The position numbers and the translations under genes are program-made. A stretch of DNA of 51,041 nt, taken from the sequence record SRR20825010_1521; one strand, given 5' to 3'. Each line of letters begins with the position of its first letter. Positions within the stretch are counted from its first letter, which is position 1. The notes beneath the pieces are model-generated. The model was not told the DNA's origin. It saw only the letters and a program-made list of their open reading frames with translations, and did not search any database. Positions 21,973-37,446 of the stretch are shown here, piece by piece.

Positions 21973-21976
21973 CTAT

Positions 21977-22645
21977 TTAGTTTCTTAGCTTTATAATAGA
22001 CCCCAGTGTTGCGCGAACGGTGTTTTCAAGTCCATCGAAATCCCCATTGGTCAATATTTTTTTACTGATAAGTTGAGAACCCAGTCCTACACAGGTTACT
22101 CCGGCATCGAACCATGCTTTTAAGTTGGAAACTTCGGTTGTGACACCTCCAGTGGGCATAATACTTGTCCAAGGTTGTGGGCCTTTTATGGCCTTTACAA
22201 AGGAAGGGCCATAGGTAGATCCGGGAAATAATTTTACAATTTCGCAACCCCGTTCCTCGGCATTGTTAATTTCGGTGAGGGAACCACATCCGGGAGACCA
22301 AAGAACTTTTCTCCTATTACAGGCAATGGCAATATCTTCCCTTAGGGAGGGCGTTACTATGAAATTGGCACCCATCTGCATATATAAAGATGCTGCGGCT
22401 GCGTCGGTAATGGAACCTACCCCGAGAATCATGCCCGGAAGTTCTTTGACAGCGAATTTGTTGAGTGCAGAAAATACTTCGAAGGCGAAATTGCCCCTTG
22501 CCGTAAATTCCATCAATCTGGCACCACCGTCGTAGCAGGCCTTTAAAACCTTCTTGCCCAATGCAATGTCCGAATGGTAGAATAAAGGTACCATACCGGT
22601 TTCCTTCATTATAGCTGCTACTTCTATTCTTGTATATTGTGCCAT
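21977..22645 (-). CDS. eda: KDPG/KHG aldolase
   Basis: MEFTAR, LGVGSI, GANFIVTP, VKLFPG and MPTGGV motifs. Confidence 0.93.
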   Translation of the reverse strand: MAQYTRIEVAAIMKETGMVPLFYHSDIALGKKVLKACYDGGARLMEFTARGNFAFEVFSALNKFAVKELPGMILGVGSITDAAAASLYMQMGANFIVTPSLREDIAIACNRRKVLWSPGCGSLTEINNAEERGCEIVKLFPGSTYGPSFVKAIKGPQPWTSIMPTGGVTTEVSNLKAWFDAGVTCVGLGSQLISKKILTNGDFDGLENTVRATLGSIIKLRN

Positions 22646-22774
22646 ATAATTTTATTGATGTTGGGTAAGTAATCCAAGTTTTGTAATAAACTGTATTCTT
22701 TGGCGTAGAAAACCGAGTGTTTACACTGTTGGTCGTGCAGATTTTGGCTACGTATGCAATTTCTAAATACTAAT

Positions 22775-22815
22775 AAATCCGGGAATAGCTTATTAGTGCA
22801 TGAATTCCCGGATTT
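22775..22815. terminator. 12-bp inverted repeat between the SDR gene and eda (terminator or stabiliser)
   Basis: AAATCCGGGAAT / ATTCCCGGATTT. Confidence 0.6.
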
Positions 22816-22845
22816 TAATTACTTATTACCTTTTTGTTTGTTTTT

Positions 22846-23610
22846 TTAAATTCCTAAACCTTGTCCACCACCTATTTGGATAGTTTCGGCCGTAAGGAAA
22901 GCTGCATCCTTCCCAGCTAAAAATGAAATTACAGAGGCTACTTCCTCAGGTTGACCTAATCTTCCTAACAAAATATTGTTTTTCCAAGAGGCGAATACTT
23001 CTGGTTTGGTAGATTTGATTTCTGTATGGAAAGGGGTGTCAATGGTACCTGGAGATACTGCATTTACTCTAATCCCATATTCGGCAAGGTCTTTGGCCAG
23101 GGCCCTAGTAATGGCATGAACACCCGCTTTGGATGTTCCATAAATTCCTGCTCCAGGTCCTCCGGCATTCCAACCTGCAATGGAGGTATAGTTGATTATA
23201 GTAGGAAGATCTCCTTTTTTTAGATAAGGTATCGCAGCTCTAGAAGCGAAAAACACTGAATCCAGGTTTAATGCCATTACAAAACGGTAAAATTCTGTTG
23301 TCATTTCTTCAAATCTGGATCTTCCCCCAAGTCCACCTGCATTGTTTACAAGAACATCAATTTTTCCATATTTTTTCCCGATCTTATTAATGTTTGCAGT
23401 TACTTCGTCTTCCTTGGTAACATCAAATCCGTAATATTCGGCAGTGATGCCTTCAGCAGTGAGCTCTTTAATTCTTTTAGCTCCTCCTTCATCATCTATA
23501 CCGTTCAATACTACTGTATATCCGTCTTTACCCAATCTTTTAGCTACTTCGAAACCTATGCCTCCGGTAGCTCCTGTTATAACTGCTACTTTTCCCTTTG
23601 AATTACTCAT
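22846..23610 (-). CDS. SDR oxidoreductase, probable DEH(U) reductase
   Basis: TGATGGIG, NNAGGL, GGPGAGIYGTSKA and PGTIDTPFH motifs; alginate-locus context. Confidence 0.85.
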   Translation of the reverse strand: MSNSKGKVAVITGATGGIGFEVAKRLGKDGYTVVLNGIDDEGGAKRIKELTAEGITAEYYGFDVTKEDEVTANINKIGKKYGKIDVLVNNAGGLGGRSRFEEMTTEFYRFVMALNLDSVFFASRAAIPYLKKGDLPTIINYTSIAGWNAGGPGAGIYGTSKAGVHAITRALAKDLAEYGIRVNAVSPGTIDTPFHTEIKSTKPEVFASWKNNILLGRLGQPEEVASVISFLAGKDAAFLTAETIQIGGGQGLGI

Positions 23611-23640
23611 ATTTCAATTTTTATATTATTAAATTTTAAA

Positions 23641-24924
23641 TTATTCTACTGACTTTATATTCTTTGCGAAATAATAGATAGATCCTACTCCAAGTGGAAC
23701 AAAGATGGCTATGGCCACAAAAATGGGGGTATAGGAAACTTTCGCAATTACGGGTACTAAAAAGTTCATGATGATCACTGAAAACACCCCTACCATACCA
23801 CCTAGACCAGCTAAAGATCCTACAGATTTACCACTAAAAAAGTCGCTCGGAAGGGTTTGGATATTGCCAATGGCAAACTGAAATCCGAACAGCACTATAA
23901 ATACGATCGCAACGAATTTCTCTGGAGTGTCCGCAAATAATATTGTTGATATAAGACCTAGGACCATGATAAGACCTCCTATGAAAATGGTGGTTTTCCT
24001 ACCTTTGTTTATTGAGTTTGTTTTCGCAATAATAACTCCGGAAACGTAGCCACCTGCTATACTCCCAATGGCTGCACCTACATAAGGAACCCACGCAAAC
24101 ATTCCCACTTCTTTTACGTTAAAGCCGTACACGTCAAATAAGTATATTGGCATCCAGCCTACAAATAGCCACCAGATAGGTTCTAAGAAGAATCTACTTG
24201 CAACAATGGCCCAAGATTCTTTATAGGAAAGTATTTCCTTAAGGCTTAATCCTTTTTGATCGTCAGTGGCATTTTGATCGGCTATACTTTGCCCTTCGGA
24301 AATAAATTTTCGCTCTTCCTCTGTTATCCAAGGATGCTTTTTTGGTCCTGCTTTATTAATTAAAAGCCAAGGAATAATCCATAAAAGACCTATGGCCCCA
24401 ACTATTATAAACGTCACCTCCCAACCATAGGCTACAAAAAGAAGTGCTATTAGAGGTGGTGCTATAACCGACCCAATGGAGGCCCCGGCATTAAATAAGC
24501 CTTGGGCTATGGCCCGTTCTTTTATTGGAAACCATTCGGCATTACTTTTTACTGCACCTGGCCAGTTTCCCGCCTCCGATAATCCTAAGGTAGTTCGGAA
24601 AAATGCCAAGGATAAAAAACCTCTTACTGTGGAATGCAATAAGGTGGACAAGCTCCAAATACCTATACTTATAACGTATCCAATCCTAGTACCAACTTTA
24701 TCGAAGAGCTTGCCCGAGAATAATTGTCCCAGGGCATAGGCAACCATAAAAATGTTTAGGATATAACTATAGTGATCTTTTGTGAGGCCCAAAGAATGGG
24801 ATATGGAACCTTCAACATTTTCATTGCCCCACATAATGGACAAAGCACTTCTGTCTATATAATTAATAACAGTTGCCAAAAATATAAGACCGATAATGAA
24901 CCAACGTAATCCTTTAATTTTCAT
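23641..24924 (-). CDS. exuT: MFS hexuronate transporter (ExuT-like)
   Basis: LRWFIIGLIFLATVINYIDR and EAGNWPGAVKSNAEWFPIKERA motifs. Confidence 0.88.
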   Translation of the reverse strand: MKIKGLRWFIIGLIFLATVINYIDRSALSIMWGNENVEGSISHSLGLTKDHYSYILNIFMVAYALGQLFSGKLFDKVGTRIGYVISIGIWSLSTLLHSTVRGFLSLAFFRTTLGLSEAGNWPGAVKSNAEWFPIKERAIAQGLFNAGASIGSVIAPPLIALLFVAYGWEVTFIIVGAIGLLWIIPWLLINKAGPKKHPWITEEERKFISEGQSIADQNATDDQKGLSLKEILSYKESWAIVASRFFLEPIWWLFVGWMPIYLFDVYGFNVKEVGMFAWVPYVGAAIGSIAGGYVSGVIIAKTNSINKGRKTTIFIGGLIMVLGLISTILFADTPEKFVAIVFIVLFGFQFAIGNIQTLPSDFFSGKSVGSLAGLGGMVGVFSVIIMNFLVPVIAKVSYTPIFVAIAIFVPLGVGSIYYFAKNIKSVE

Positions 24925-25159
24925 AGTATTTTGCTTTGGTTTGATATTATTTTTGCTATGTCATTTATAGGATATAGCAAGTAAGCGGATAAATTATCCG
25001 TGCTCTTTTAATACTTGAATTAGGCTTGAAAATATTGGAAGTATTTAAATCGTAATTTAAATACTACGCAAATTACGGTGTAATTTCAAGTATTATTTCC
25101 CTTCAGATTATTTTTTAAAGGCGATAAAAGTGTGCGATTTTATCCCTTGGTGATTTTTG

Positions 25160-25867
25160 TTAATCTTTAATATTGTAACAATATTGATATAGCATTTTAA
25201 AATGTACTTTCATTTTTTCCTTGGCCAATTGGGGATCCTGATTCTTGATGGCTTCATAAATGTCCCTATGCTCTTGAATTCCAATAAAAGCGATATTCTT
25301 GTCACAAACGTGATATTTGGCAAAGTTGGTAATGATCTCTGGCGTAATTGTTAGCATAAATGTATTTATGGTACTATTCCCGCTTGCTTTTGCTATTGCC
25401 AAGTGAAACAAAAGATCTTCCTGTACTGCGTCTTCACCATTCATTACCTTCTTTGAATAAGCCTCCAAAGCCTCCTCTATTTCTTTCAATTCCTCTTTGG
25501 TTCTTCTCAGCGCTGCCAACCTTACGGTTTTCAATTCCAATAGAATTCTTGTCTCTACCAAGGATTTGAAATCGGGTTTTTCAAGCCTTAGAATATCCGT
25601 GATCATACCATTTAATGCCACAGAACCTATATCGGCTACAAAGGTACCGCTCTGCGGCTTTGACTTTAATAGTCCATAGAATTCCAAAGTCTGAATTGCT
25701 TCCCTTACATTGCTTCTACTTACTTCAAAACTTTCTGAAAGCTTCCTTTCCGAGGGTAATTTGTCCCCTGGCTCCAGGTTCTTGTAATTTATGTAATCCC
25801 TAATCTTGGATATAATTTCTTTCTGAAGTGCGTCGTTTTCGTTTTTCGGGAGAATTTCTGTTTTCAT
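25160..25867 (-). CDS. FadR/GntR family repressor (AusR-like alginate regulator)
   Basis: HTH motif LPSERKLSESFEVSRSNVREA and FCD motif DLLFHLAIAKASGN. ATG 25867 preferred. Confidence 0.92.
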   Translation of the reverse strand: MKTEILPKNENDALQKEIISKIRDYINYKNLEPGDKLPSERKLSESFEVSRSNVREAIQTLEFYGLLKSKPQSGTFVADIGSVALNGMITDILRLEKPDFKSLVETRILLELKTVRLAALRRTKEELKEIEEALEAYSKKVMNGEDAVQEDLLFHLAIAKASGNSTINTFMLTITPEIITNFAKYHVCDKNIAFIGIQEHRDIYEAIKNQDPQLAKEKMKVHFKMLYQYCYNIKD

Positions 25868-25890
25868 ACTAATCTTATTAGTTCTACAAC

Positions 25891-25919
25891 TGGTTAACCA
25901 GATTGGTTTGTCAAATTTA
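25891..25919 (-). promoter_or_regulatory. GntR operator (2 boxes) overlapping the -7 element of the regulator gene
   Basis: TGGTTAACCA at 25891, degenerate TGGTTTGTCA at 25904, CAAATTTA at 25912-25919. Confidence 0.8.
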
Positions 25920-25989
25920 GGCATAAAACGCAATCGAGAAAAATATTACTCACTTATAATTCCTGCCTTTTTGCATTTAAGTTACTTTT

Positions 25990-26029
25990 AAAAAAAGTTC
26001 ACTGGCCTGACATCAAGCCAGTAAACTTT
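25990..26029 (-). terminator. Terminator downstream of susD
   Basis: Minus strand AAGUUUACUGGCUUG/CAGGCCAGUGAACUU stem (with G-U pairs) followed by a U tract. Confidence 0.85.
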
Positions 26030-26205
26030 AAAACAAAACTAACTAAACTACTAGTCCTTTAAGAGTGCGGTCCCATGTGTTCATATCCATTTATATATTC
26101 CATGCTTATAGTTTTACCTCCTGCTCAGAGGACCGCAACCCTGCAAATTCTTTTTTGTCCCTAGTCTATAAATAATCAACGACCTTGTGATAATTTTATC
26201 AAGGT

Positions 26206-27540
26206 TTAGTAACCATCATTTTGGGTAATAACTCCGTCGCTCGCAAGAATTTCTGAGTTTGGTATTGGAAACACATAGTAATCACTGCTAATCGTTGCTC
26301 CCATTTCAGCATCTACTGTTCCTGTTCTAACCAAATCAAACCATCTATGTCCTTCAAGGGCCAACTCCACTCTTCTTTCGTCTGCAATTGCCTGTCTTAC
26401 ATCTGCTTGCGAGCTTACCGTTCCTGTTAAACTGTTTAAGCCTGCCCTACTTCTTATAGGATCCAATAGTGGAAGTACAGTGGTTGCAGCGGAGCCAGTT
26501 TCATTCAGAGCTTCTGCGTGCATTAGAATAACATCGGATAACCTGAGTTCGATATAGTCCTGATCAAGAGCTCCTGTATATTTCTTACTACCATTCTGAT
26601 TATCAGTGTCAATAGTTAGCGCCTTTCTTAAATCCGTACCTCCTCCAGCGGCACTACTGGCGTCAAAAGCGGCAGTTAGGCGCGGGTCTAAAGGTGTAAG
26701 GGATTTTGTATCGGCCCCGCTAAACCATCCTACAAAGGTGGTGGCCGATCCATAGGCGTTTGGAACTGAAGTTGATAATTGGGTTGCAAAAATAATTTCT
26801 GAATTACCGTCTACTACAACGTTGGCAAAGTCGCTTTCCAAACTAATCCCTGCAGCAGCAGCGCCGCTTACTACAGTTCCAAGCGTTGTTGCAGCTTCGG
26901 AAAAATTACCTCTGTATAGATATACTTTTCCCAGAAATGCCTGAGCCGCGATTCTAGATGCGCGTCCACTGGCCAATCCAGAATTATCCAAACCTGCTAT
27001 TGCGGCCTGAAAGTCTGGAATGATTATGTTATTGTAAACGTCTGCAGCCGGTTGTCTTGTTAAAATGGACAAATCGGATGGGCTGGGTGAAGGAGATAAA
27101 TTTACGGTGACATCACCAAAAACCATCACCAATTTAAAGTAGGACAAAGCTCTTAGGAATTTGGCCTCAGCTATCTCAGTGGGCTTCGTTGAATTTTCAA
27201 TGACGTTATTCGCACTTAAGATTGCCTTGTACAAATTGCTATAGAATGGCCGAAAGAATTGCTCTACCAAATCCAAGCCTGCTAAATCTGCATTGTAGGT
27301 GTCAAATGAGGTATATGGGCTTTCTAACATCAACATATTGTCGGCCCTAAAGTCGCCCATCACACCCATTGGTGTTGAACCACCGGTCTGATAGTAATAC
27401 GCTGCATTCAGAACGGGTCCAAATTCCTCCAAACCACTGGATTCAAGTAATAGAGGTGGCGTTTGATCCAAATCGTTATCACATGCTGTTAACAACAACA
27501 AGGAAACTAAAACTGTATAAATAGATTTCATTTTTTTCAT
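26206..27540 (-). CDS. susD: SusD/RagB family glycan-binding lipoprotein
   Basis: Lipobox LTAC; AEAKFLRALSYF, LRLSDVILMHAEA and ERRVELALEGHRWFDLVR motifs. Confidence 0.93.
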   Translation of the reverse strand: MKKMKSIYTVLVSLLLLTACDNDLDQTPPLLLESSGLEEFGPVLNAAYYYQTGGSTPMGVMGDFRADNMLMLESPYTSFDTYNADLAGLDLVEQFFRPFYSNLYKAILSANNVIENSTKPTEIAEAKFLRALSYFKLVMVFGDVTVNLSPSPSPSDLSILTRQPAADVYNNIIIPDFQAAIAGLDNSGLASGRASRIAAQAFLGKVYLYRGNFSEAATTLGTVVSGAAAAGISLESDFANVVVDGNSEIIFATQLSTSVPNAYGSATTFVGWFSGADTKSLTPLDPRLTAAFDASSAAGGGTDLRKALTIDTDNQNGSKKYTGALDQDYIELRLSDVILMHAEALNETGSAATTVLPLLDPIRSRAGLNSLTGTVSSQADVRQAIADERRVELALEGHRWFDLVRTGTVDAEMGATISSDYYVFPIPNSEILASDGVITQNDGY

Positions 27541-27550
27541 GTTTTCTTTA

Positions 27551-30500
27551 TTAAAAATTAACATTTAGACCCAAAGTGAAACTTCTTACAATAGGGCTTG
27601 CACCTTCTTGGTATCCGTATGTAGTTGGACCTGCATAACCTGTATTTTCTATCTCTACACCTTCAGGGTTGAATGAGGTATAATCATCTGCCATTATATA
27701 CAACAAATTGGTAGCTGCAAGATATATTCTCATAGAACTTAGGCCAATTTTGTCCGTTAAATCCGAATTAAGGGTGTATCCTAAGGTTAGGTTTCTTAAA
27801 GCTGTAAATGAGGCATCTTGTATCCCTGAACCATGTGCATTTCTGGTCTCTTGATAAAACTTGCCGCTAGCATCGGCAATACCGTCACTATTGGCATCAA
27901 AACTGGACTTTAATCTACCGCCAAATTGTGATTTCCAGTAAATAGGGTCTATATTGTAGAGTTCTGCTCCTTGAGATCCTTGGAATTGGAACGAGAAATC
28001 AAAATTCTTAATATTCATTGAACTTGAAAGTCCCCAGTAGAAATCGGGAGTGGCGGATCCTAACTTTACATAATCCCCTTCATAGGTAATTTCGCCGTCA
28101 CCGTTTTGGTCTACAACATAGTATTCTCCACTTCCAAATCCAACACCTCTGGAAGGATCTGACATATGTATTGTCTCAACCTCACCAGTTACTTCATAAC
28201 CCCACATTTCACCGATTTCACCTCCTACATAGTTTCTAAACTCAGGACCTCTACCGCTGGGTCCACCGTAAATTTGCCTGGGCAGTTCCGTCAAATCACC
28301 AAGATTGGTAATTTCTGAATTGGCAGTTGATAAATTGGCGTTGACATTCCAAGAGAAGTTGGGATTGGTAATTATCTTTGTACTAAGTTCAAATTCCAGA
28401 CCGGAACTGGTAACATCCCCGCGATTAAGTTTTATAGCAGGTGTCCCAAGAACCTCGGAAACACTTTGATTTATCAACATATCTTCAACATCAGACGTAT
28501 AATAATCTACACTTAATCTAATACGGTTACTAGCAAAACCTAAATCAACACCATAGTTGGTCTCTTTATTGGTCTGCCAAGTTAAATCTGGGTTGGCTAT
28601 ATCCTCTGGAATAAGAAATCCTGTCCCGAAAGCTGTTGGAGAGGTGCCCAAAATACTTAATGAGTTGTATGAGCCTAAGAAAGAAGCAGTTCCCAAAGAG
28701 CCGGTACTAAACCTAAGTTTAAATAGGCTAAACGCATCGGCATTTCCGAAAAAAGATTCATTGTGAATATTCCAACCTAAGGATAGTGCTGGGAATACTG
28801 CGTATTTTTCATTGGCTCCAAATCGTGAATCGCCATCCCTTCTAATTGATGCCGATAGTAGATAACGATCATCAAAGGCATAGGCAATTCTTCCAAAAAA
28901 ACCATTTCTGGACTGAGTCTCATCGATCTCGTTGGTAATCACATCTGCAGGATCGAAAAAATCATAATTCAATGGCAGACCATATGGTACGTTCGATCCA
29001 TTATTTACCATGCCCTTATAATAGGTGTTTACAAATTCCATACCGGCCACCGCAGAGATGTCATGCTTCTCAGCAATTACTTTTGCATAACTCAAGGTAG
29101 TTGTGCTTAGGACGGTAGATTTTTTAATATTGGATATGTCCAATTCTGTTTGATTGGAACGTTGTTGGCCATCCGATAATATTCCATGATATACATAGGT
29201 CTGGGTATCTTCAAGATCTGCTCCGAAAACGGTTTTTAAATTTAAACCCTCTATGATTTCATATTGTAAATAAGAACTCACGTTCCCAAAATACGTTTTT
29301 TTCCATCTTCTCGAATTGTCAAATTTAGCCGCTACACCAGCATCTCCTGTTCCTCCAATTCCATTTTGATTTCTACCGTATTGCCAATCGTGAACTACAT
29401 CGCCAGGTTGTAAATCATAAATGCTAGTAGGATCCAAACCTATACCTCTGTAATCTTGGTCAAATGACCTACCAATGTTATTTCCTGTAAATCCAGAATC
29501 GAATAAGGCCTGTCTATCTCGATCCAATTGTTGAACGAAATCTATTGAAGCTTGAGTATGGTATATAGGGCTAATACTATATGACCTCAAAAGATCCCTC
29601 ATTTCCCAAGGTACAATATCTTGGTGGCCATAATAACCATTCATACTCAATCCGGCCTTTAATTTGGAGCCCAAGTTGGCATCTAGGTTCATACGTCCGT
29701 TGTACCTTTCATAACCTTGCCCTTTTACTATACCATCCGTTTTCAAGTAACCAAGTGAAGCAAAGGCCTTTAAGTTTTCAGAACCACCGCTAACACTAAA
29801 ATCGTGATTGGTTGTGCTACCGTTTTTGAAAAGCCAATCTTCTATACTTACTACGTCGGGGGCATTAGCGTATGCATTTAGTCTGTAAGCCAATAGACCT
29901 GGGTCGGTTTCGGAAAGATCATAAGCACTAGTTTGCAATTCTTCGGCCCATTCTCCTGCTGTCTTAAGCATTTCGATGTCCTTTATATACTTGCTTGAGG
30001 TACTTGCATAAGAATTATAATTAAAACTAACTTTTCCTGCCTTTCCTTTTTTGGTGGTTACCAAAATAACACCATTGGCACCTAGAGAACCATAAATAGC
30101 AGCTGAAGCGGCATCTTTTAGCACCTCTAGACTTTCAATATCGTTGGGGTTAACTGTGGCCAAATTACCTGAAATTGGGTAGCCATCCACAACAATTAAC
30201 GGCCCAGAGTCGCCCGAAACAGATGAAGCTGCCCTGATTTGAATCTTAGGATCCGCACCAGGTTCTCCACTTTGATTTTGAATTCGTACCCCGGACAACT
30301 TACCTGCAAGGGCATCATCTACACGAGCCACTTGAACAGCAGCTACTTCATCTCCTCCTACTTTTGCGACCGCTCCGGTAAGATGTGATTTTTTTATAGT
30401 ACCATATCCAACTACCACTACCTCATCAAGTTGACTTGCATCTTCCTGTAGGGTGATATTCAATTGTTCTTGATTTGTAATGGGGACTGATTGGCTAACA

Positions 30501-30733
30501 AATCCCAAGGAGGAGAACTGTAGTACGTCGCCGTTTTTTACCGTAATTTGGTAATTTCCATCAAAGTCGGTAGCCGTACCGGTAGTAGTATTGGCTATAA
30601 TTACATTCACTCCAGGCACTGGTACCTGAGAAGCATCTGTTACCGTTCCGGTCAGAATACGGCCATCTTGGGCGAACAGTGCAATATTGAATAACAATAC
30701 TACTGTTAGAATTAAATTGATTTTGAATTTCAT
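27551..30733 (-). CDS. susC: SusC/RagA TonB-dependent transporter
   Basis: LDEVVVVGYG and DIESLEVLKDAASAAIYGS.GANGVILVTTKKG motifs; C-terminal GLNVNF. Confidence 0.97.
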   Translation of the reverse strand: MKFKINLILTVVLLFNIALFAQDGRILTGTVTDASQVPVPGVNVIIANTTTGTATDFDGNYQITVKNGDVLQFSSLGFVSQSVPITNQEQLNITLQEDASQLDEVVVVGYGTIKKSHLTGAVAKVGGDEVAAVQVARVDDALAGKLSGVRIQNQSGEPGADPKIQIRAASSVSGDSGPLIVVDGYPISGNLATVNPNDIESLEVLKDAASAAIYGSLGANGVILVTTKKGKAGKVSFNYNSYASTSSKYIKDIEMLKTAGEWAEELQTSAYDLSETDPGLLAYRLNAYANAPDVVSIEDWLFKNGSTTNHDFSVSGGSENLKAFASLGYLKTDGIVKGQGYERYNGRMNLDANLGSKLKAGLSMNGYYGHQDIVPWEMRDLLRSYSISPIYHTQASIDFVQQLDRDRQALFDSGFTGNNIGRSFDQDYRGIGLDPTSIYDLQPGDVVHDWQYGRNQNGIGGTGDAGVAAKFDNSRRWKKTYFGNVSSYLQYEIIEGLNLKTVFGADLEDTQTYVYHGILSDGQQRSNQTELDISNIKKSTVLSTTTLSYAKVIAEKHDISAVAGMEFVNTYYKGMVNNGSNVPYGLPLNYDFFDPADVITNEIDETQSRNGFFGRIAYAFDDRYLLSASIRRDGDSRFGANEKYAVFPALSLGWNIHNESFFGNADAFSLFKLRFSTGSLGTASFLGSYNSLSILGTSPTAFGTGFLIPEDIANPDLTWQTNKETNYGVDLGFASNRIRLSVDYYTSDVEDMLINQSVSEVLGTPAIKLNRGDVTSSGLEFELSTKIITNPNFSWNVNANLSTANSEITNLGDLTELPRQIYGGPSGRGPEFRNYVGGEIGEMWGYEVTGEVETIHMSDPSRGVGFGSGEYYVVDQNGDGEITYEGDYVKLGSATPDFYWGLSSSMNIKNFDFSFQFQGSQGAELYNIDPIYWKSQFGGRLKSSFDANSDGIADASGKFYQETRNAHGSGIQDASFTALRNLTLGYTLNSDLTDKIGLSSMRIYLAATNLLYIMADDYTSFNPEGVEIENTGYAGPTTYGYQEGASPIVRSFTLGLNVNF

Positions 30734-30868
30734 TAGTGATTTAATTAAGTTAGTAACAAGTGATTAATAATGGCTTTTTGCCATTGGTTTCTATAATGTG
30801 ATATTGTTCACATTTAATCCTTCATATTACTAAAACATGTGGCTGCACTAATATTGACTGAAATTGCT

Positions 30869-30978
30869 TATTTTTGCAGTAAATATGTATATAGTAATAT
30901 TTGCATGTTTGGTATTACTTCCCTTCAGAATGAAGTAATCTTTTACAAAAGGATGGGTGTGCGCCCGTCCTTTTTTTT
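30869..30978 (+). ncRNA. Candidate cis-antisense sRNA in the susC leader (coordinates include its -7 element)
   Basis: TATTTTTG at 30869-30876, hairpin ATTACTTC/GAAGTAAT, and terminator GGAUGGGU/GCCCGUCC plus U8 whose G-U pairs form only on the plus strand. Confidence 0.5.
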
Positions 30979-31045
30979 GTCAATTTCTAGGGTTTATTTT
31001 TAATCTTTTTTCTTTTAACATGGTTATTGCTGTTTTGAGTTATTT

Positions 31046-31087
31046 TGGTAAACCAAATTGGTTTACCAGTTTGGTTTACCAAATATA
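31046..31087 (-). promoter_or_regulatory. GntR operator (3 boxes) overlapping the -7 element of the susC promoter
   Basis: TGGTAAACCA at 31046, TGGTTTACCA at 31059 and 31072 (13-bp period), CAAATATA at 31080-31087. Confidence 0.88.
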
Positions 31088-31195
31088 TGTTATTAATTTG
31101 TTAATTAAAAATTTAATTACAAATTTTGTTTGTTAAATTTTTATTTCTGCTAATTTGAGGTTATAAAAATTAGCAAATTCGTATTTATTTGTATT

Positions 31196-31948
31196 TTATG
31201 AAAAGGCAAGTCCACCGTTAATATCAATGTTTGCCCCTGTAATAAAGGAAGTTTCGGAAGATGCCAAGCAGGCTACCGTATTTGCAATTTCCTCTGCAGA
31301 TCCTTCCCTACGAAGTGGGGTCATTCCCGCGACTTTCTCCCTAACCTCATCCGTGGTGAAGGTATCGTGAAAGGTAGTGGCGATCATACCGGGACAAAGG
31401 GCATTTACTCGAATATTTTTTGGGCCTACCTCTTTGGCCAGACCTCGAGTAAAAGTCATTATGGCTCCTTTGGAGGTTGCGTAAGCTATAGATCCTCCGC
31501 CCCCGCCATCCCTACCGGCCTGGGAGGCTATATTTACTATGGAAGCCCCAGATTTCATATGGGGCAGGACAGCTTGGGTTACCAAGAAGGTAGAATTGAG
31601 ATTTAATTTTATCACCCTGTCAAAAAAGGCTTCATCCATTTCAGCTATGGTCTTTCTGGCAACCAGGCCACCGGCGTTGTTTACCAAAATGTCTATAGCA
31701 TCTCCATAACTGCTAACCGCTTCCTTTACGAGTCTATCTACTTCAGATTTTTTGGTCACATCGGCCTTAACGATTATGGCTTCCCCGCCGTCCGATTTAA
31801 TTGCATTTAGAGTTTCTTTGGCGTTTGCTTCATTGCTAAAGTAATTAACTACGACCTTGGCACCTTCCTTGGCCAATTTAATGGAAATGGCTTTTCCAAT
31901 ATCTCTGGTTCCACCAGTTACAATGGCTATTTTTCCTTTTAAATTCAT
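31196..31948 (-). CDS. SDR oxidoreductase (second DEH(U) reductase-like enzyme)
   Basis: TGGTRDIG, NNAGGL, GGGGGSIAYATSKG and PGMIATTFH motifs. Confidence 0.85.
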   Translation of the reverse strand: MNLKGKIAIVTGGTRDIGKAISIKLAKEGAKVVVNYFSNEANAKETLNAIKSDGGEAIIVKADVTKKSEVDRLVKEAVSSYGDAIDILVNNAGGLVARKTIAEMDEAFFDRVIKLNLNSTFLVTQAVLPHMKSGASIVNIASQAGRDGGGGGSIAYATSKGAIMTFTRGLAKEVGPKNIRVNALCPGMIATTFHDTFTTDEVREKVAGMTPLRREGSAEEIANTVACLASSETSFITGANIDINGGLAFS

Positions 31949-31996
31949 ATATATTGTTTATGATACTAAGTCTTCCCCAAAAGGGATTTATTTCTA

Positions 31997-32374
31997 TTAT
32001 GATTGTTTATCTCCAAAATAAGATACTCCACCACCACTTAAGAAATCTTCCCGTACTGGACTAAATGTGTCAATTAGTATCCCTTCTTCCAAACAAACTG
32101 CACTATGCATTAGATTGGGTTCAATATAAACTCCATCTCCTGCTTCTACAATTTTCTTTTCTCCGTTAATTTCAAATTCAAATTTACCTGAAGCGCAATA
32201 GGTAGCTTGCGTGTGAAAATGTTGATGTGGGGAACCTAATGCTCCTTTCTCAAATTTCACTTTGACCATCATGATTTGGTTATCGTATCCCAAAAACTGT
32301 CTTGAAACTCCGCCTCCAAGTTTTTCCCATTTCATGTCTTTTGTGGTGATGTACTTTTCACTAAATCGTTTCAT
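31997..32374 (-). CDS. kdgF: Cupin KdgF (unsaturated uronate linearisation)
   Basis: PHQHFHTQ, H.AVCLEEG and DTFSPVREDFL motifs. Confidence 0.9.
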   Translation of the reverse strand: MKRFSEKYITTKDMKWEKLGGGVSRQFLGYDNQIMMVKVKFEKGALGSPHQHFHTQATYCASGKFEFEINGEKKIVEAGDGVYIEPNLMHSAVCLEEGILIDTFSPVREDFLSGGGVSYFGDKQS

Positions 32375-32445: not shown

Positions 32446-34500
32446 TTACTTTGGGGGTGTGCCCTGACCAACGGTTGCTTCCCTAAACCATACTTCCGTA
32501 TAACATCCGTTTTCGTATTGTTTGGCGATATCACCTCCATAGGTTTCGGCACCTGAAAACCAAACCATGTTGGTTTCTGGACTTTTTCCATTGGTCTGGT
32601 TATATGCGCCCTGTTTAAAATAATTCAATTCTCCACTATAGGCAGTGGCACGTTCAACGTCGTCTTGCCCTATGGGGGCGAATAAATACTTCATCTGTTC
32701 TGGGAAGTCCGACTTTTTTACATATTCTGATGCAATCAGATTTTTGGTAAATGTTTTGGTTTCGTGATTTTCACTTTTGAAGGTTAGATACATGATTCCT
32801 TTATAAACATTTACTTCATAACTAAATTCTTCACCTAATTCAATGCCATTTTTAGGTTCAGCAGGAAAGTCGTTTTTGCCTTTCCCAATGACGGACATAT
32901 CGTTCCCCCATACGGCATAGGAATGTTCCCACCGGCCTGAATTATCATCACCTGCTGGATTGATTTCATAATTCCAAAAAACGGAACCCTTGTTGTGACC
33001 AGGAAACTTCTTGTAGAATATTTTTAGTGGTTCATTTTCATGTCCCTCACCGCTGTGAATTTGCCCGACAACAGTGGAATAAGAGGCAGCAACTCTGGCA
33101 TCGCCAGAAATGGAGACCTGCATTACCTTGCAGGTGCCTGTTAATTTGCCACCTTCTTCAGGGAGCCATTCTCTTTTTTCGTGTAGCTCGGTTCTTGTGT
33201 TACTGGAGTTTTTTGAGGTGACACCAGAATTGGGAGTTTTGTAGACTACCCAACGCCTTGTACCGTCTATTACGGTGTAGAAATAATCTTTGTGTTCGAA
33301 CTGTGTGATATCTTCCACCTCCTTACCGTCACCCAGCAATATTTTAAATTTATCCATAAATGGAATCACCTCATTGGGATAGACCGTTTTAGTACTTAGG
33401 CCATCATTTGCTTCGAAATAACCTGTATTTGAAATGGCATCATCGCTGATTGTAATATCCGCTGATTTAAACCATACCTCAGCGTAATTACCATCTGCAT
33501 ATTGTTTTTGTAAATCACCACCATGGGTTTCGGCACCAGAACACCAAACTTTATTGATTTTAGGGTCTTTTCCGTTGGTTTGGTTGTACGTGCCCAATTT
33601 AAAAAATAGGCCCTCGCCGGTATACGCTTCTTTGCGCTCGAGGCCATCCTGCCCAATGGGTACAAATAATTTCTTGGTTTGCTCTGGCATGTCCGAAAGA
33701 TTTGCATATTCTGAGGAAATAAGATTTTTAGTGAATTTTTTGGTTTCATGGCCTTCACTCGTGAATGTTAGATACATCATACCTTCCTTAATAACTACTT
33801 CATAAGTGAATTCTTCACCTAAAGCAATTCCGTCAACTGGTTCAGGTGGATAGGTGTTTTCATCAGTACCGACAACAGAAAAGTCAAAGCCCCATATAGG
33901 ATAGGAATAATCCCATCTTTTGGAATTATCATCACCTGCAGTATTTATTTCGTAATGCCAAAAGACAGAGCCTTTTTCATGCCCAGGAAATTTTTTATAG
34001 AAGATTTTAAGTGGTTCGTTTTCATGCCCATCTGCACTGTGAATCTGACCAACTACTACTGAATACGTTGAAGCAACGCTGGCATCGCCGGTAGTTGACA
34101 CGTTCATTACCTTTAGGGTAGCTTTCATAGTAGCTTCTGTCATTGGTGTCCACTTCTTTAATTGGGCCAATTCTGTTCTTGTGTTGTTCGAGGTACCATG
34201 GGTATTTCCTGCATTTGGAGTTTTGAATACTACCCAATCCCCTTGATTATCACTCGCAGTATAAAAGAAATTCTTGTGCTCATAGTCAATAGCTTGGCCT
34301 ACATTAGAGCCATCACCGAGGATCAAATTCCAATGTTGAAAAAATGGTATGATGTCGTTTGGAATACGACCTATAGCTGCGTTTTCAGTATCGTCTGTAG
34401 ATTTTTGTTTTTTGTTCTCGGCACAGCCAACAAATAGCAAAATGGTACTTATCATGAATAAATAATGTACGGAAGCCGAATGGAATACTTTAAAGTTCAT
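32446..34500 (-). CDS. Lipoprotein alginate lyase with two tandem PL7 domains
   Basis: Lipobox FVGC. Domain 1: RTELAQ / GQIH / FFKLGTYNQ. Domain 2: RTELHE / GQIH / YFKQGAYNQ. Confidence 0.92.
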   Translation of the reverse strand: MNFKVFHSASVHYLFMISTILLFVGCAENKKQKSTDDTENAAIGRIPNDIIPFFQHWNLILGDGSNVGQAIDYEHKNFFYTASDNQGDWVVFKTPNAGNTHGTSNNTRTELAQLKKWTPMTEATMKATLKVMNVSTTGDASVASTYSVVVGQIHSADGHENEPLKIFYKKFPGHEKGSVFWHYEINTAGDDNSKRWDYSYPIWGFDFSVVGTDENTYPPEPVDGIALGEEFTYEVVIKEGMMYLTFTSEGHETKKFTKNLISSEYANLSDMPEQTKKLFVPIGQDGLERKEAYTGEGLFFKLGTYNQTNGKDPKINKVWCSGAETHGGDLQKQYADGNYAEVWFKSADITISDDAISNTGYFEANDGLSTKTVYPNEVIPFMDKFKILLGDGKEVEDITQFEHKDYFYTVIDGTRRWVVYKTPNSGVTSKNSSNTRTELHEKREWLPEEGGKLTGTCKVMQVSISGDARVAASYSTVVGQIHSGEGHENEPLKIFYKKFPGHNKGSVFWNYEINPAGDDNSGRWEHSYAVWGNDMSVIGKGKNDFPAEPKNGIELGEEFSYEVNVYKGIMYLTFKSENHETKTFTKNLIASEYVKKSDFPEQMKYLFAPIGQDDVERATAYSGELNYFKQGAYNQTNGKSPETNMVWFSGAETYGGDIAKQYENGCYTEVWFREATVGQGTPPK

Positions 34501-35136: not shown

Positions 35137-37446
35137 TTAATACATTAAGTTCATTTCTAAATTCTCCTCAACCCTTATTTCTCCGGAATTGTTGATTTCA
35201 TTGTTCTTATGTGAATTGTTTTTCGCTCCCCAAAGTAAGGCCACCAGTTTTACCGGATTGTTGTTAAAGGTATTATTGAAAATATCAACATTTACAATGC
35301 CGTGGGAGTTGATCAGAATTCCATTTTTTTCTTCTGATCCACAATTCGTGAAGGTGCTATTTGTAACCAGAAGATTTCCGCCAATGGTGGATTCGTCGTA
35401 ACCCCCGCGATAGTAGTCGATTACATTACTTTTTACATTGTTGAACTTACAATTGTTTATCGTTAGATATTCAGTGTTATAATCTCCTAGATCATTAGTT
35501 TCTTCAGAAAGTTCCAAACCATTTTCGCAATTTGATATTGAAGTATTTTCAAAAGTGATACGTTCTGCAAAGGACTCCTTATACACTTTTAAAACATAAT
35601 TAAAATCACTGATATCGCAATCGGAAACCGTTAATCTAAAATGTGTAAACATATTTTCTTTTAAACTGGCAAATGTATATTGGGAATTATTTCCTTTTAA
35701 TGTTACATTTTTTAGGTTTAAAAAGCCTTTAGGTTGAAGTTGGAATAAGGGTGAATTCTCTGCTCCCGAATAATTTAGGGTAACTTTTGATTTATCGGAG
35801 GATTGAATAGTTAACTTTTTGTTGATTATCAAGGACTGCGGGATGTCATAATTTCCTGCTTCCAGCGAAATGATATCGCCATTTTCCGCCTCATTGATTT
35901 TAAATTGAAGATTTTCTGCTGTGGCAACAACTACTGTTTTAGGTTCTTTTTCTTCTGTTTCAGATGAATACCAACTTGGGCCATATTTGGATCTGTCCAA
36001 AATATTGGGGTCTTCAAAATCCGTATTTGTGAAAGCTCCTATAGAATTGTTTTCAGCTCTGGAATTGCTGACCAAATCTTTGGATATATTTTCAAATTCG
36101 AATCCTTGGTAGGGTTCAATATCTATCTTGGAGGAAGGGATAAGGATGTTTTCTCCAATTTCTTTAATGTCAAAATTTACAGCCTTCAATCCATCATAAG
36201 GTTTGATATCCACACCTTGATTATTTATTGCGTTCCTTTTAAAGGTCACTCCATCAGCCTTATCGTGTTCAACAATTGGCAAAGCATCACCCTTTTCATT
36301 ATAAATTACGTTGTTTGCAACAATGGTCCTTATTGGTCTGGCCGAGCGAATTTCAGAGGAAGGAAGAACATCTTGCTGACTTAAATTTTGACCAACTCCG
36401 AATTGCCAGGGGGAATCACAATTGATGTAGGTATTGTATGCCACCACAACATCTGTAACCTGATTGTATCTGTTTAGGGGTGATTTTGGAATTCCGTTCA
36501 TCACGGCCAAGGCACTTCTAAAATTCTTTCCTTTTATATTATAGAAGTAATTGTTGGTTACCCAATGTCCAGTATTGATAATTCTGATACCTCCTATGTT
36601 TTCGTTCTTACCATCGCCAATGAAGTAATTGCCATCAATAGTGCAGTAATTGCCATGTCTTGTTACCAAAGAACCTTCGCTTTTATAAAAGACATTATTT
36701 CTGAACTCATTGAAGTTAGTTTTGCTGGAAATAATTTCTACTTCACCGTTGCACTCTTCAAATAAGTTATTGGCAACCCTTGTATAACTTGGGGACATAG
36801 AAGAAAAGCTGTTGCCAATTTGAATGGTCTCGCCACTGGCACCTCCCTTAGGGGGTCTTGGCCCAAAATGGTTGTTAATGATTTGATGGTAATTATTTAT
36901 GCTCTCATTGCCTTCCAAGTCTACCCTTATAGTTGGTCCACGATTTGTTTTTCCAGCAATATAACTGTTGCTCAAAGTATTGTGTCTTCCCCAGAATTGA
37001 ACCCATAGATCAGTGTCATCTCGATGCATTTTGTTAAAATCCTCAATAACGCAATTGGTAATGGTGCAGTGATTTGCTATCGTATTCTCATCTATTTTAA
37101 ATTCCAATACAGCTTCACTGCGCGAATAACCATTTCTAAAGTGCAGACCATCCACCACTAAGTATTCCCCTCCAAATTTTAGATCGGATACGCCTTCAAT
37201 AAAAACTTTTCCAGGGGTTTCGGCCTTAATTGTAATTGGCTTGTCTTCCGTGCCTTCGCCTATAAATCTAATTTGGATATCCTTCCATATACCATTGGCC
37301 ATCACAATATTATCACCTGCCTGTACATTTTTTAGGGCTTCTTCCAATTCTTGGGGAGTGCCTACTGTTTTGGTATTAAGATTGGTCTTTTCCCCACAAG
37401 CGCCGATAATAAACAAAAAGCAAAGTAATGTTACTAGTCTTGTCAT
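35137..37446 (-). CDS. PL6 alginate lyase (chondroitinase-B-like beta-helix, two domains), lipoprotein
   Basis: Lipobox IGAC; AETPGKV, NHFGPRP, GEVEIISSK, LVTRHGN and YYRGGYDESTIGG motifs. Confidence 0.92.
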   Translation of the reverse strand: MTRLVTLLCFLFIIGACGEKTNLNTKTVGTPQELEEALKNVQAGDNIVMANGIWKDIQIRFIGEGTEDKPITIKAETPGKVFIEGVSDLKFGGEYLVVDGLHFRNGYSRSEAVLEFKIDENTIANHCTITNCVIEDFNKMHRDDTDLWVQFWGRHNTLSNSYIAGKTNRGPTIRVDLEGNESINNYHQIINNHFGPRPPKGGASGETIQIGNSFSSMSPSYTRVANNLFEECNGEVEIISSKTNFNEFRNNVFYKSEGSLVTRHGNYCTIDGNYFIGDGKNENIGGIRIINTGHWVTNNYFYNIKGKNFRSALAVMNGIPKSPLNRYNQVTDVVVAYNTYINCDSPWQFGVGQNLSQQDVLPSSEIRSARPIRTIVANNVIYNEKGDALPIVEHDKADGVTFKRNAINNQGVDIKPYDGLKAVNFDIKEIGENILIPSSKIDIEPYQGFEFENISKDLVSNSRAENNSIGAFTNTDFEDPNILDRSKYGPSWYSSETEEKEPKTVVVATAENLQFKINEAENGDIISLEAGNYDIPQSLIINKKLTIQSSDKSKVTLNYSGAENSPLFQLQPKGFLNLKNVTLKGNNSQYTFASLKENMFTHFRLTVSDCDISDFNYVLKVYKESFAERITFENTSISNCENGLELSEETNDLGDYNTEYLTINNCKFNNVKSNVIDYYRGGYDESTIGGNLLVTNSTFTNCGSEEKNGILINSHGIVNVDIFNNTFNNNPVKLVALLWGAKNNSHKNNEINNSGEIRVEENLEMNLMY

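Follow-up and report, generated by a model that had tools for sequence, protein, structure and literature searches.

The window, by which we mean the whole stretch of DNA analysed here (51,041 nucleotides from sequence record SRR20825010_1521), contains an alginate utilisation locus of the Flavobacteriaceae. Brown algae contain alginate as a major polysaccharide, and its turnover in the coastal carbon cycle depends centrally on flavobacterial loci for its use. The locus has a susC-like transporter gene, a gene for an orthologue of the regulator AusR and, 3' of an intergenic element, a group of genes that starts with an MFS transporter. A candidate small RNA (sRNA) gene lies on the opposite strand upstream of susC, 5.8 kb from the ausR-MFS intergenic region. 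The features are listed in Table 1.

Table 1. Features of the alginate locus discussed in the text; positions are those of the window.
Feature	Position	Strand	Sequence details or basis
MFS transporter, SDR, KDPG aldolase and Nramp genes, 3' of the intergenic element	20698-24924	-	Pfam
Purine tract	25097-25107	-	UCUGAAGGGAA, 11-nt perfect complement of the seed UUCCCUUCAGA
Intergenic mRNA hairpin	25120-25146	-	loop UCGCACAC
CGCACA in the loop of the intergenic hairpin	25136-25131	-	complement of the sRNA terminator loop UGUGCG
GntR/FCD regulator gene, AusR orthologue	25160-25933	-	Pfam GntR, FCD
susC-like TonB-dependent transporter gene	27551-30733	-	ORF; Pfam CarbopepD_reg_2, Plug
-7 promoter box of the sRNA gene	30869-30876	+	TATTTTTG (TAnnTTTG); sequence
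Predicted sRNA transcript, ~98 nt	30881-30978	+	covariance model, fold
Hairpin 1, 5'-terminal stem	30881-30910	+	AAAUAUGU 30881-30888 / GCAUGUUU 30903-30910
Hairpin 2, C/U-rich 10-nt loop	30914-30939	+	ATTACTTC 30914-30921 / GAAGTAAT 30932-30939
Seed of hairpin 2	30919-30929	+	UUCCCUUCAGA
Intrinsic terminator	30947-30978	+	stem GGATGGGT 30951-30958 / GCCCGTCC 30963-30970
Terminator loop	30958-30963	+	UGUGCG; overlaps the loop-closing wobble pair U30958-G30963
Terminator U8 (T8)	30971-30978	+	
susC promoter	31046-31087	-	three AusR-type operators over the -7 box

Three TGGTWWACCA repeats of 10 nt each start at 31046, 31059 and 31072 in the susC promoter, and the last of them overlaps the minus-strand -7 box TATATTTG (31087-31080), which is the only TAnnTTTG on that strand in the susC-side intergenic region. 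The promoter region is invariant in our alignment A1. The predicted operators fit the consensus TKGTN2-3ACMA of AusR-controlled transporter promoters (Ptbdt) as given in the accessible part of PMC7641319, where a triple operator across the -7 box is also described for the Ptbdt of Zobellia. With the susC transcription start predicted solely from the -7 box, the 5' UTR that precedes the start codon at 30733 would be ~340 nt long and would hold the full complement of the sRNA; a start nearer to the ATG would abolish this cis overlap. The sRNA lies 100-245 nt 5' of the susC start codon, so that it could not directly block initiation.

On the plus strand, TAnnTTTG is found only at 30869 in the 462-nt intergenic region, the rate in the window being 0.63 per kb and strand. 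No clear -33 TTTG is visible, in agreement with the first-pass annotation. By automatic count, 44 of 55 homologues have a strict TAnnTTTG 40-52 nt 5' of hairpin 2, and inspection by eye gave such a box also in L052 and L053; the nine homologues without a strict box have, by eye, apparent one-mismatch variants. The ends of the predicted transcript were placed by the -7 box (5') and the U-tract (3'). As in intrinsic terminators, the terminal hairpin (12 pairs, 5 of them G-C) is followed by T8; the scan for such structures gave 5 sites where 0.5 were expected. T-runs of 5-14 nt occur in 53 of the 55 homologues, those in which the scan found one. The stem UUACUUC/GAAGUAA of hairpin 2 is almost invariant among the homologues. 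The first-pass annotation had proposed an sRNA of ~97 nt on this strand, antisense within the susC leader; its -7 box, hairpin, terminator, susC ATG and promoter/operator were all found in place when checked against the sequence. It was right on hairpin 2 and the terminator and missed a third hairpin at the 5' end (30881-30910).

The fold of this region differs between strands. From 30880 to 30980 the plus strand folds at -31.1 kcal/mol (z -5.3, equalled by 0 of 200 shuffles) and the minus strand at -18.6 kcal/mol (z -2.7). In per-sequence folds of the 55 homologues the plus strand was the more stable in 54 for the full RNA, in 53 for hairpin 1 and in 47 for the terminator, the minus strand being at least equal in the remaining eight. 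Hairpin 1 shows compensatory double changes at 8 of 8 pairs; 93.4% of its cells are paired on the plus strand and 72.5% on the minus strand, and the excess of G-U/U-G cells (89) over A-C/C-A cells (4) indicates that it folds on the plus strand only. The helices upstream of susC covary as a whole, with double changes at 15 of 26 pairs, as is required of a structured ncRNA, and 93.7% of all helix cells are paired (88.0% in shuffles, 0 of 500 of which match; 37-53% in helices slid as a control); these counts come from an alignment fitted to the model and are biased towards it, and the independent per-sequence folds agree with them. In a MAFFT alignment hairpin 1 was left unaligned and was thus missed by RNAalifold; it was recovered by the per-sequence folds and the covariance model. 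The two wobble positions of the terminator are U-G on the plus strand and C-A on the minus strand. This strand argument, already made in the first-pass annotation for the window, extends to the whole family, one such pair being U-G in 43, U-A in 9 and C-G in 2 of 54 distinct sequences; another terminator pair is GC in 25 sequences and AU in 27.

These data bear on the possibility that the element acts on the minus strand only, either as an attenuator in the susC leader or by closing the upstream lyase-KdgF-SDR transcript as a bidirectional terminator or insulator, without any stable sRNA. An A-tract flanks the hairpin, so that the minus strand reads as hairpin plus UUUU, and the z of -2.7 and the eight homologues with an at least equally stable minus-strand terminator would suit such a role, as would the terminators that earlier work predicted in the Zobellia locus, according to a figure legend. 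However, there are 4-5 U on the minus strand against 6-14 on the plus strand (none in the outlier L062), and the position of the element, 3' of the susC operator/promoter, does not allow simple insulation of susC from upstream genes. The strand asymmetry of hairpin 1 and the conserved plus-strand promoter would also be left without explanation, and we consider this reading very improbable. Practically negligible is the chance that the plus-strand transcript encodes a small hydrophobic peptide, such as MYIVIFACLVLLPFRMK from 30885. Short ORFs do exist in the window, but in 53 homologues the longest ORF is spread over the three frames relative to the conserved motif (22, 20 and 11), length differences in loops and spacers are not multiples of three and no shared peptide was found; the coding interpretation was rejected.

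The covariance model R1 scores 113.1 bits at 30878-30978, its sole match in the window at E<=0.01. Rfam 15 gave no family at threshold over 30000-32000 and 24850-26300; the best score in 30000-32000 was 25.8 bits, for an unrelated leader that needs 46.5. R1 matches 55 of 55 related loci (47.8-119 bits) and 29 of 47 further AusR (GntR) loci; the 18 without an R1 match to the sRNA include some on short contigs. By BLAST, the sRNA core is present in 44 of 401 genomes of the family at E<1e-4 and in 54 at E<=0.01. An AusR orthologue occurs in all 44 BLAST-positive genomes, and the 307 genomes without an AusR orthologue gave only short partial BLAST matches (E ~0.0025-0.01). Exact-pattern matches cover more than 120 species, including named Zobellia, Maribacter, Arenibacter and Algibacter. 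The position is also conserved: three sets place the sRNA opposite the SusC leader in 42 of 43 loci, in 14 of 15 and in 29 of 30 hits, and what remains lies opposite the ausR leader. Every locus examined has it antisense to susC or ausR, even at 35-39% SusC identity, and full second copies lie 5' of ausR in L044, L061 and L263. Taken together, the sequence at 30881-30978 (+) is very likely a real sRNA gene, and its predicted relatives constitute an undescribed sRNA family at the KdgF/SDR-susC junction of the Flavobacteriaceae alginate utilisation locus. No published description of this sRNA was found in the literature searched. The conserved box, the covarying 5' hairpin, the terminator and the fixed position lend strong comparative support to the cis-antisense assignment of the first-pass annotation, which had overlooked a putative second target, in trans.

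Similar arrangements are known from gut bacteria. DonS-type cis-antisense sRNAs associated with PULs of Bacteroides were reportedly described by Cao et al. in 2016. The mucin-glycan loci of DonS have sigma/anti-sigma pairs, whereas the locus studied here is under a GntR/FadR repressor, and we know of no second conserved target of DonS with complementarity to two loops. The accessible text of PMC7366714 describes DonS-type sRNAs of Bacteroides as small RNAs of 78-128 nt (~98 nt predicted here) encoded inside a PUL on the strand opposite to the 5' region of a susC homologue, with their own Bacteroidota-type promoter and terminator. The same arrangement is predicted here from sequence, and the negative action on the locus expected there would be expected here too. 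In contrast to DonS, the sRNA reported here occurs in marine Flavobacteriia across dozens of genera and overlaps the 5' UTR only; no sequence relation between the two was detected by the Rfam 15 search.

The putative trans target lies in the ausR-MFS intergenic region. A structured element is found there 14-65 nt past the ausR stop codon; the stem of its hairpin covaries between genera, and the mRNA strand is the more stable in 22 of 29 cases. No -7 box was found on the opposite strand at this hairpin (0 of 29). A second sRNA gene at this site was considered and rejected in favour of an mRNA structure on these two counts. The core of the purine tract, CUGAAGGGAA, is invariant in 8 of 8 members of the genus. 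In the window, a small local stem takes up part of the tract.

The seed of hairpin 2 would pair with this tract. A 13-nt seed search in the window found a site with one mismatch at 25093-25105; with up to three mismatches allowed there were 23 matches where 22.4 were expected, of which only that site is meaningful. Genome-wide, the 10-nt seed motif showed no excess over a reversed control in five genomes. The seed duplex of the window has an energy of -18.6 kcal/mol (z -5.5), and the purine-tract site is the best of 2625 sampled 40-nt segments (20 kb, both strands). For the comparison with other genomes, the sRNA was located by sequence pattern in 37 of 41 20-kb loci (L090, L093, L102 and L123 left out), and a set of 33 loci was used, which leaves out L091, L095 and L099, where the region is cut by the locus end, and L118, with no GntR in range. 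In 30 of these 33 loci the duplex reaches -10 kcal/mol or lower, with a mean of -18.2; its position is fixed, 58-83 nt from the start of the region, and the site ranks first within 20 kb in 24 of 33.

In both pairings the two partners show compensatory change between genera. Intermolecular covariation is seen at seed positions 10 (U-A 8, C-G 23), 12 (A-U 14, U-A 9) and 13 (G-C 6, A-U 13); as loop and seed sequences are the same in most genomes, it rests on a handful of lineages, with perhaps 4-6 independent events, related genomes not being independent. The terminator loop of the sRNA and the loop of the intergenic hairpin form corresponding classes: CGUGCA/UGCACG (31 of 32, where apparent complementarity is inflated by the partly palindromic GUGCAC), UGUGCA/UGCACA (4 of 6), UGUGCG/CGCACA (2 of 2) and GUACAA/UUGUAC (1 of 1). 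Pairing of this loop requires that it be 6 nt long; the minimum-energy fold of the window gives 4 nt. The loop and seed modules are both present in 37 loci, both absent in 19 and discordant in 5 (mismatched genomes, 96 of 2278), these being raw counts in which automatic extraction missed L108, L112, L121 and L114, which have both modules. Where the loops of the sRNA deviate, the intergenic element is missing. From this evidence the pairing between sRNA and intergenic element is probably functional. Several sRNAs are kept without the element, which implies that a trans target would not be the sole function.

This retention, the universal cis-antisense position, the second copies 5' of ausR, which show that the module does duplicate, and a weak resemblance of the reverse complement of the intergenic element to the sRNA (27-bit R1 match) could all be accommodated if the sRNA were real and acted in cis on susC only. 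Its mode would be that proposed for DonS, either transcriptional interference or cleavage directed by the duplex, and the intergenic complementarity would be a relic without function, left by an ancient duplication of part of the leader. We think this unlikely. A relic would decay, but compensatory changes have kept loop and seed in exact complementarity, with unrelated stems and spacers between them, and the loop drifts only where the intergenic element is missing. Moreover, any change in the sRNA keeps cis complementarity, and a pure cis-antisense role therefore fails to explain the invariance of its sequence. A second, predicted trans target in the ausR-MFS intergenic region accounts better for the invariance of the loops.

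Concerted change without trans pairing would be expected if the susC leader and the ausR-MFS region were paralogous sense elements, each with a UGCACG-loop hairpin and GGAGGGAAG, that bind a common protein or ligand. On the mRNA strand the two elements do share both modules and their order; a ligand or RNA-binding protein has been suggested for the intergenic structure (PMC7641319, accessible part), and RRM-type proteins bind susC leaders of Bacteroides (PMC11697453, accessible part). However, in most genomes the leader-side stem contains C-A mismatches when read on the mRNA strand, and a protein would have had to change in step with the loops in several lineages. Such a model also offers no account of the long U-tract, of the promoter box conserved on the plus strand or of the 5' hairpin that forms on that strand only. 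These points make the sense-element explanation improbable. A DonS-like cis-antisense sRNA of ~98 nt with a second, trans target is, with moderate confidence, the best explanation overall; gene anatomy, strand, conservation, synteny, and bipartite complementarity with covariation give it comparative support.

Several sRNAs of other systems share parts of this design. In OxyS-fhlA and CopA-CopT, two loops of a structured RNA contact two target sites, one of them a hairpin loop, whereas here the pairing is predicted from covariation and the 6-nt loop also serves as the terminator loop. ChiX is a constitutive sRNA of E. coli and Salmonella that silences a glycan-uptake gene in the absence of substrate and is titrated by an induced mRNA of the pathway (chbBC); one of its partners in pairing lies between the genes of a polycistronic catabolic mRNA. 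ChiX belongs to another phylum, has another chaperone context and shows no homology, and the logic is here a proposal: the susC leader, by its full complementarity, would serve as the trap, and regulation would take place at the intergenic region. FopS and GibS of B. thetaiotaomicron are described in the accessible part of PMC11697453 as trans sRNAs with canonical promoters and intrinsic terminators, as predicted here by sequence, which repress PUL operons by pairing a short seed with the operon's first mRNA; a similar seed pairing is proposed here. According to the same text, FopS is multicopy and has a single-stranded 5' seed that pairs beside the susC start codon, whereas the seed here would be in a hairpin loop and would meet its trans target in an internal intergenic region; as a rule the gene has one copy, embedded in the locus. 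The FopS/GibS family model, for which those authors report an Rfam deposit, gave no match at E<=10 in 30000-32000.

A working model can be drawn from these features. The sRNA would consist of a 5' protective stem, the seed hairpin and the terminator. In cis, it would be fully complementary to the predicted 340-nt susC 5' UTR from about +95 to +192; in trans, its terminator loop would kiss the loop of the intergenic hairpin and its hairpin-2 seed would pair with the purine tract. Without alginate, a constitutive sRNA would clear leaky susC transcripts and favour termination or decay in the ausR-MFS intergenic region, which would leave the transporter, reductase and aldolase genes off and ausR on. 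On release of AusR, the susC promoter would drive strong transcription, convergent with that of the sRNA, and so lower sRNA synthesis, and the abundant, fully complementary susC leader would titrate the sRNA, so that the downstream operon opens. We infer that the RNA is probably expressed and that a sponge effect may exist; as to the sign of regulation, the sRNA probably represses, and induced susC transcription probably relieves the repression. The complete repressor-and-titration logic is offered tentatively.

A close counterpart of the locus is the AusR regulon of Zobellia galactanivorans, which has the same gene order, triple operators over the -7 box of the transporter promoter and a structured ausR-exuT2 intergenic region of ~230-240 nt (PMC7641319, accessible part). 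In the accessible part of that source, Zobellia grown without alginate has ausR-only transcripts of 770 and 950 nt and with alginate long transcripts; the conditional termination or decay in the ausR-exuT2 intergenic region and the uncoupling of ausR and exuT2 are left unexplained by Dudek et al. (2020), who invoke an unknown ON/OFF switch for this region, and the words "antisense", "sRNA" and "small RNA" do not appear there. It is conceivable, and we advance it with considerable reserve, that the sRNA is this alginate-dependent ON/OFF switch: it would relay a single AusR operator event via RNA to a second operon, being destroyed or titrated when susC fires, and would couple uptake at the outer membrane with catabolism in the cytoplasm across the Flavobacteriaceae.

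In the literature searched, the AusR repressor is the only PUL-encoded regulator described for marine bacteria, and no RNA-level control of these alginate loci is described. If the interpretation is right, a widely conserved sRNA family would for the first time be linked to a marine polysaccharide utilisation locus, and the DonS-type arrangement would reach well beyond gut Bacteroides. The sRNA might then be the switch so far missing in the coupling of alginate uptake with its breakdown and would provide a testable candidate for the unexplained uncoupling of ausR from exuT2-kdgA in Zobellia. The bipartite pairing, with its natural compensatory variants, would supply ready designs for mutagenesis. 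Within Zobellia itself, loop and 12-nt seed both match in Z. uliginosa, and in Z. barbeyronii the seed matches with an internal mismatch and the loop with a wobble.

The alginate locus of the window has the same layout as the alginate utilisation system of Zobellia galactanivorans, whose GntR protein is named AusR (PMC7641319), and all genes surrounding the sRNA lie on the minus strand. The Nramp-family metal transporter gene ends the MFS-dehydrogenase-aldolase string.

Coordinates of the alginate locus, the sRNA and its associated sites in the window
Feature	Position	Strand
PL6 lyase	35137-37446	-
PL7 lyase	32446-34500	-
Cupin, KdgF type	31997-32374	-
Short-chain dehydrogenase (SDR)	31196-31948	-
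Minus-strand -7 box	31087-31080	-
Spacer between SDR and susC genes (462 nt)	30734-31195	
Predicted sRNA (about 98 nt)	30881-30978	+
sRNA -7 box	30869	+
susC-like transporter	27551-30733	-
susD	26206-27564	-
GntR/FCD regulator	25160-25933	-
Seed-complement site	25093-25105	-
MFS transporter	23641-24924	-
Second dehydrogenase, KDPG aldolase	past the MFS gene	-
Nramp-family metal transporter gene	20698-21972	-

The first-pass annotation had placed a candidate antisense sRNA in the susC leader of this locus, and on inspection of the sequence every element it listed was found where it had been placed. Each strand of the spacer has a single TAnnTTTG box. The minus-strand box sits within the third of three TGGTWWACCA repeats, which matches the Zobellia transporter promoter, where a triple AusR operator overlaps the -7 box (PMC7641319). 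From the box position and this match a susC 5' UTR of about 340 nt is predicted, and it contains the complement of the candidate sRNA. The operator part of the spacer (query ~305-370) also matches other sites 3.6-7 kb from the sRNA in the same loci (relatives' genomes G003, G021, G024 and G011, among others), presumably AusR operators in front of lyase genes. A motif like (C/T)AATGAA(A/T)TT lies at 30853-30866, ~8-12 nt upstream of the sRNA -7 box, and recurs in many genera where a -33 TTTG is expected (alignment A2); it may belong to the promoter or be a site for a regulator. The susC leader also has a small hairpin at 30768-30786 (TAATGGC-TTTTT-GCCATTG), located between the sRNA promoter and the start codon of susC and kept within the genus with compensatory-looking variants (alignment A1).

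One main rival explanation is that the structure acts as an attenuator on the minus strand, which does fold (30880-30980, -18.6 kcal/mol, z -2.7). The plus strand forms three hairpins at -31.1 kcal/mol (z -5.3). Among 55 homologues, a strict plus-strand TAnnTTTG box stands 40-52 nt upstream of hairpin 2 in 44 by automatic count; two more have one as judged by eye, and the others resemble one-mismatch variants. The sequence of hairpin 1, at the 5' end, varies among genera while its pairing is kept, with double changes at 8/8 pairs in the model-fitted alignment A7. Over all 26 pairs, 93.7% of the cells are paired versus 88.0% in shuffles (0/500 shuffles equal it) and 37-53% in slid controls. Helix 1 has 89 G-U/U-G cells, which pair on the plus strand only, versus 4 A-C/C-A cells, which pair on the minus strand only. 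Alignment-free folds of each of the 55 sequences give the same picture: the mean energy of hairpin 1 is -8.5 kcal/mol (plus) against -2.4 (minus), and the plus strand is the more stable for hairpin 1 in 53/55, the terminator in 47/55 and the whole RNA in 54/55. The terminator wobble pair singled out in the annotation is U-G in 43, U-A in 9 and C-G in 2 sequences, and another terminator pair is G-C in 25 and A-U in 27. Our conclusion from these sequence comparisons is that the locus carries a plus-strand sRNA gene. The longest ORFs are spread over all three frames (22, 20 and 11); the sRNA is therefore not coding, and a coding RNA was dropped as a reading.

When the spacer was searched by BLAST in 61 relatives, 13 long homologous spacers were recovered, in which hairpin 2 and the terminator are nearly invariant and the flanks diverged. 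The 81-nt sRNA core matched 54/401 family genomes at E<=0.01, full-length at E <1e-4 in 44 of them, from about as many genera. An AusR orthologue is present in 94/401 genomes, including all 44; the 307 genomes lacking it yielded only short partial matches. In 56 of 58 loci (43 + 15) the sRNA is found between KdgF/SDR and SusC and runs antisense to SusC, and the core keeps ~80% identity although SusC identity drops to 39%. In the other two loci (L044 and L061) it is upstream of the GntR gene and antisense to it. The covariance model R1, built from 17 sequences, scores 47.8-119 bits in 55/55 non-redundant loci and detects the sRNA in 29/47 additional AusR loci missed by BLAST (25-85 bits); its 30 hits there are antisense in the SusC leader (29) or in the GntR leader (1). 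The remaining 18/47 loci, several of them short contigs, had no R1 match. A scan for the exact pattern, with one genome per species, found at least 120 loci; among the matches listed are Arenibacter, Maribacter, Algibacter, Flavivirga, Flagellimonas, Mariniflexile, Lutibacter, Aquimarina, Kordia and two Zobellia species, and Z. barbeyronii has the same order as the window (susC start, sRNA, triple operator). Promoter box, one-strand hairpin 1, covariation and synteny thus support the proposed antisense sRNA gene. Some genomes carry a second full copy, antisense in the GntR (ausR) leader, or two copies per locus: a copy lies ~400 nt upstream of the GntR gene in the homologous loci L044, L061 and L263, and L248 has two (L248:3811-3910 and L248:11732-11832). 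In the PausR promoter of Zobellia, Dudek et al. describe an unusually long distance of 125 nt between operator and -7 box, which might reflect insertion of an sRNA copy.

Action in cis only, with any intergenic site a relic, is another main rival, but cis-antisense pairing alone leaves the near-invariance of the hairpin-2 and terminator loops unexplained. A search of the window for complements of the seed gave one near-perfect site, in the GntR/MFS spacer, whose core CUGAAGGGAA is invariant in 8/8 genus members. When 20 kb around the sRNA was taken from 40 genomes, 33 loci remained, window included, after leaving out L090, L093, L102 and L123 (sRNA not located by pattern), L091, L095 and L099 (intergenic region cut by the locus end) and L118 (GntR not in range). 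After the GntR stop codon these 33 share a hairpin with variable stem and 8-nt loop UUGCACGC or variant, an A/U-rich spacer, then GGAGGGAAG or GAAGGGAA. Through its 18-nt seed region, each sRNA makes a duplex of 9-15 bp with the site of its own genome, always 58-83 nt into the region, at <= -10 kcal/mol in 30/33 loci (mean -18.2), and the site ranks best of ~2,600 sampled 40-nt windows (20 kb, both strands) in 24/33. The duplex covaries at seed position 10 (U-A in 8, C-G in 23 loci), as well as at 12 (A-U in 14, U-A in 9) and 13 (G-C in 6, A-U in 13); L250 pairs CUUCCCUCUC with GAGAGGGAAG, and L262 UUCCCUCUU with AAGAGGGAA.

A further main rival is a protein-binding element shared by the susC leader and the intergenic region. 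The sRNA terminator loop (6 nt) and the loop of the intergenic hairpin are exactly complementary, and both change in step: CGUGCA with UGCACG (31/32 loci), UGUGCA with UGCACA (4/6), UGUGCG with CGCACA (2/2, the window's class) and GUACAA with UUGUAC (1/1). As a control, sRNA loops matched intergenic regions from genomes of other loop classes in 96/2278 pairs. In 61 AusR loci with sRNA and captured intergenic region, loop complementarity and seed duplex are both present in 37, both absent in 19 and discordant in 5, 4 of which are automatic extraction errors. In loci lacking the intergenic element the sRNA loop has drifted (CGAGCA, CGCACA, UCAGCA, CGCGCA, CGGACA and others). The modules are co-linear for antiparallel pairing, and in Z. 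uliginosa both the loop (UGUGCG with CGCACA) and a 12-nt seed match; the Z. barbeyronii match is weaker. Covarying bipartite complementarity between the sRNA and the ausR-MFS intergenic RNA is thus supported by sequence. In 22/29 loci the mRNA strand gives the more stable intergenic hairpin (-9.9 vs -7.8 kcal/mol), and an opposite-strand -7 box was found in 0/29, so the hairpin is taken as an mRNA element; another sRNA gene was dropped on these grounds. The intergenic RNA of the window is strongly structured (z -4.66), and Rfam gave no known family for this region.

In Z. galactanivorans without alginate, an ausR probe shows 770- and 950-nt RNAs only, and with alginate extra species of 2.6, 5 and 9.5 kb; induction of the genes that follow ausR far exceeds that of ausR itself (PMC7641319). 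The authors found neither promoter nor operator in the 230-bp ausR-exuT2 spacer and proposed differential decay or conditional termination, requiring an unknown ON/OFF switch that might be a ligand or an RNA-binding protein (PMC7641319). That paper uses none of the terms antisense, sRNA or small RNA, our full-text literature search gave no account of an RNA of this kind in marine flavobacteria, and the Flavobacterium psychrophilum transcriptome paper goes no further than listing antisense RNAs as a starting point (PMC9723704).

The anatomy, strand, conservation and synteny of the sRNA gene are supported, and the antisense sRNA finding is, by these comparisons, real. Since its promoter has no nearby operator, the sRNA would be made from its own promoter, probably constitutively. 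It would pair with both the susC leader and the intergenic element and act negatively, and induced susC transcription would remove it through convergent transcription and titration; at the intergenic site it might instead activate. The proposed logic is similar to that of the ChiX/chb trap of enterobacteria, and the contact by two loops is like OxyS-fhlA. The sRNA is not a member of the FopS/GibS family, as its region had no Rfam match. Closest in kind are the PUL-associated cis-antisense sRNAs of the DonS family in Bacteroides (PMC7366714), which agree in size, position and anatomy; repression by the sRNA here is putative, and homology is not detectable.

Other structured elements were observed. 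Past the element complementary to the sRNA, the GntR-MFS intergenic RNA has more conserved helices at 24925-25096 (minus), namely a long stem, AAUACUU...AAGUAUU, and a hairpin, GCACGG...CCGC; other genera have a recurrent UUUCUUCA motif, 40-60 nt past the purine tract, that could pair with the tract. A weak R1 hit (27 bits) falls on the reverse complement of the GntR-MFS intergenic element in L283 (15719-15827, minus of that locus), which suggests that the element arose when the sRNA region was partly duplicated in inverted orientation. In the gap from susD to the GntR gene (~25985-26030, minus), a G+C-rich hairpin ACTGGC...GCCAGT followed by U7 resembles an intrinsic terminator after susD and has weak, sub-threshold Rfam matches to the Bacteroides sRNAs BTnc201 and BTnc049.
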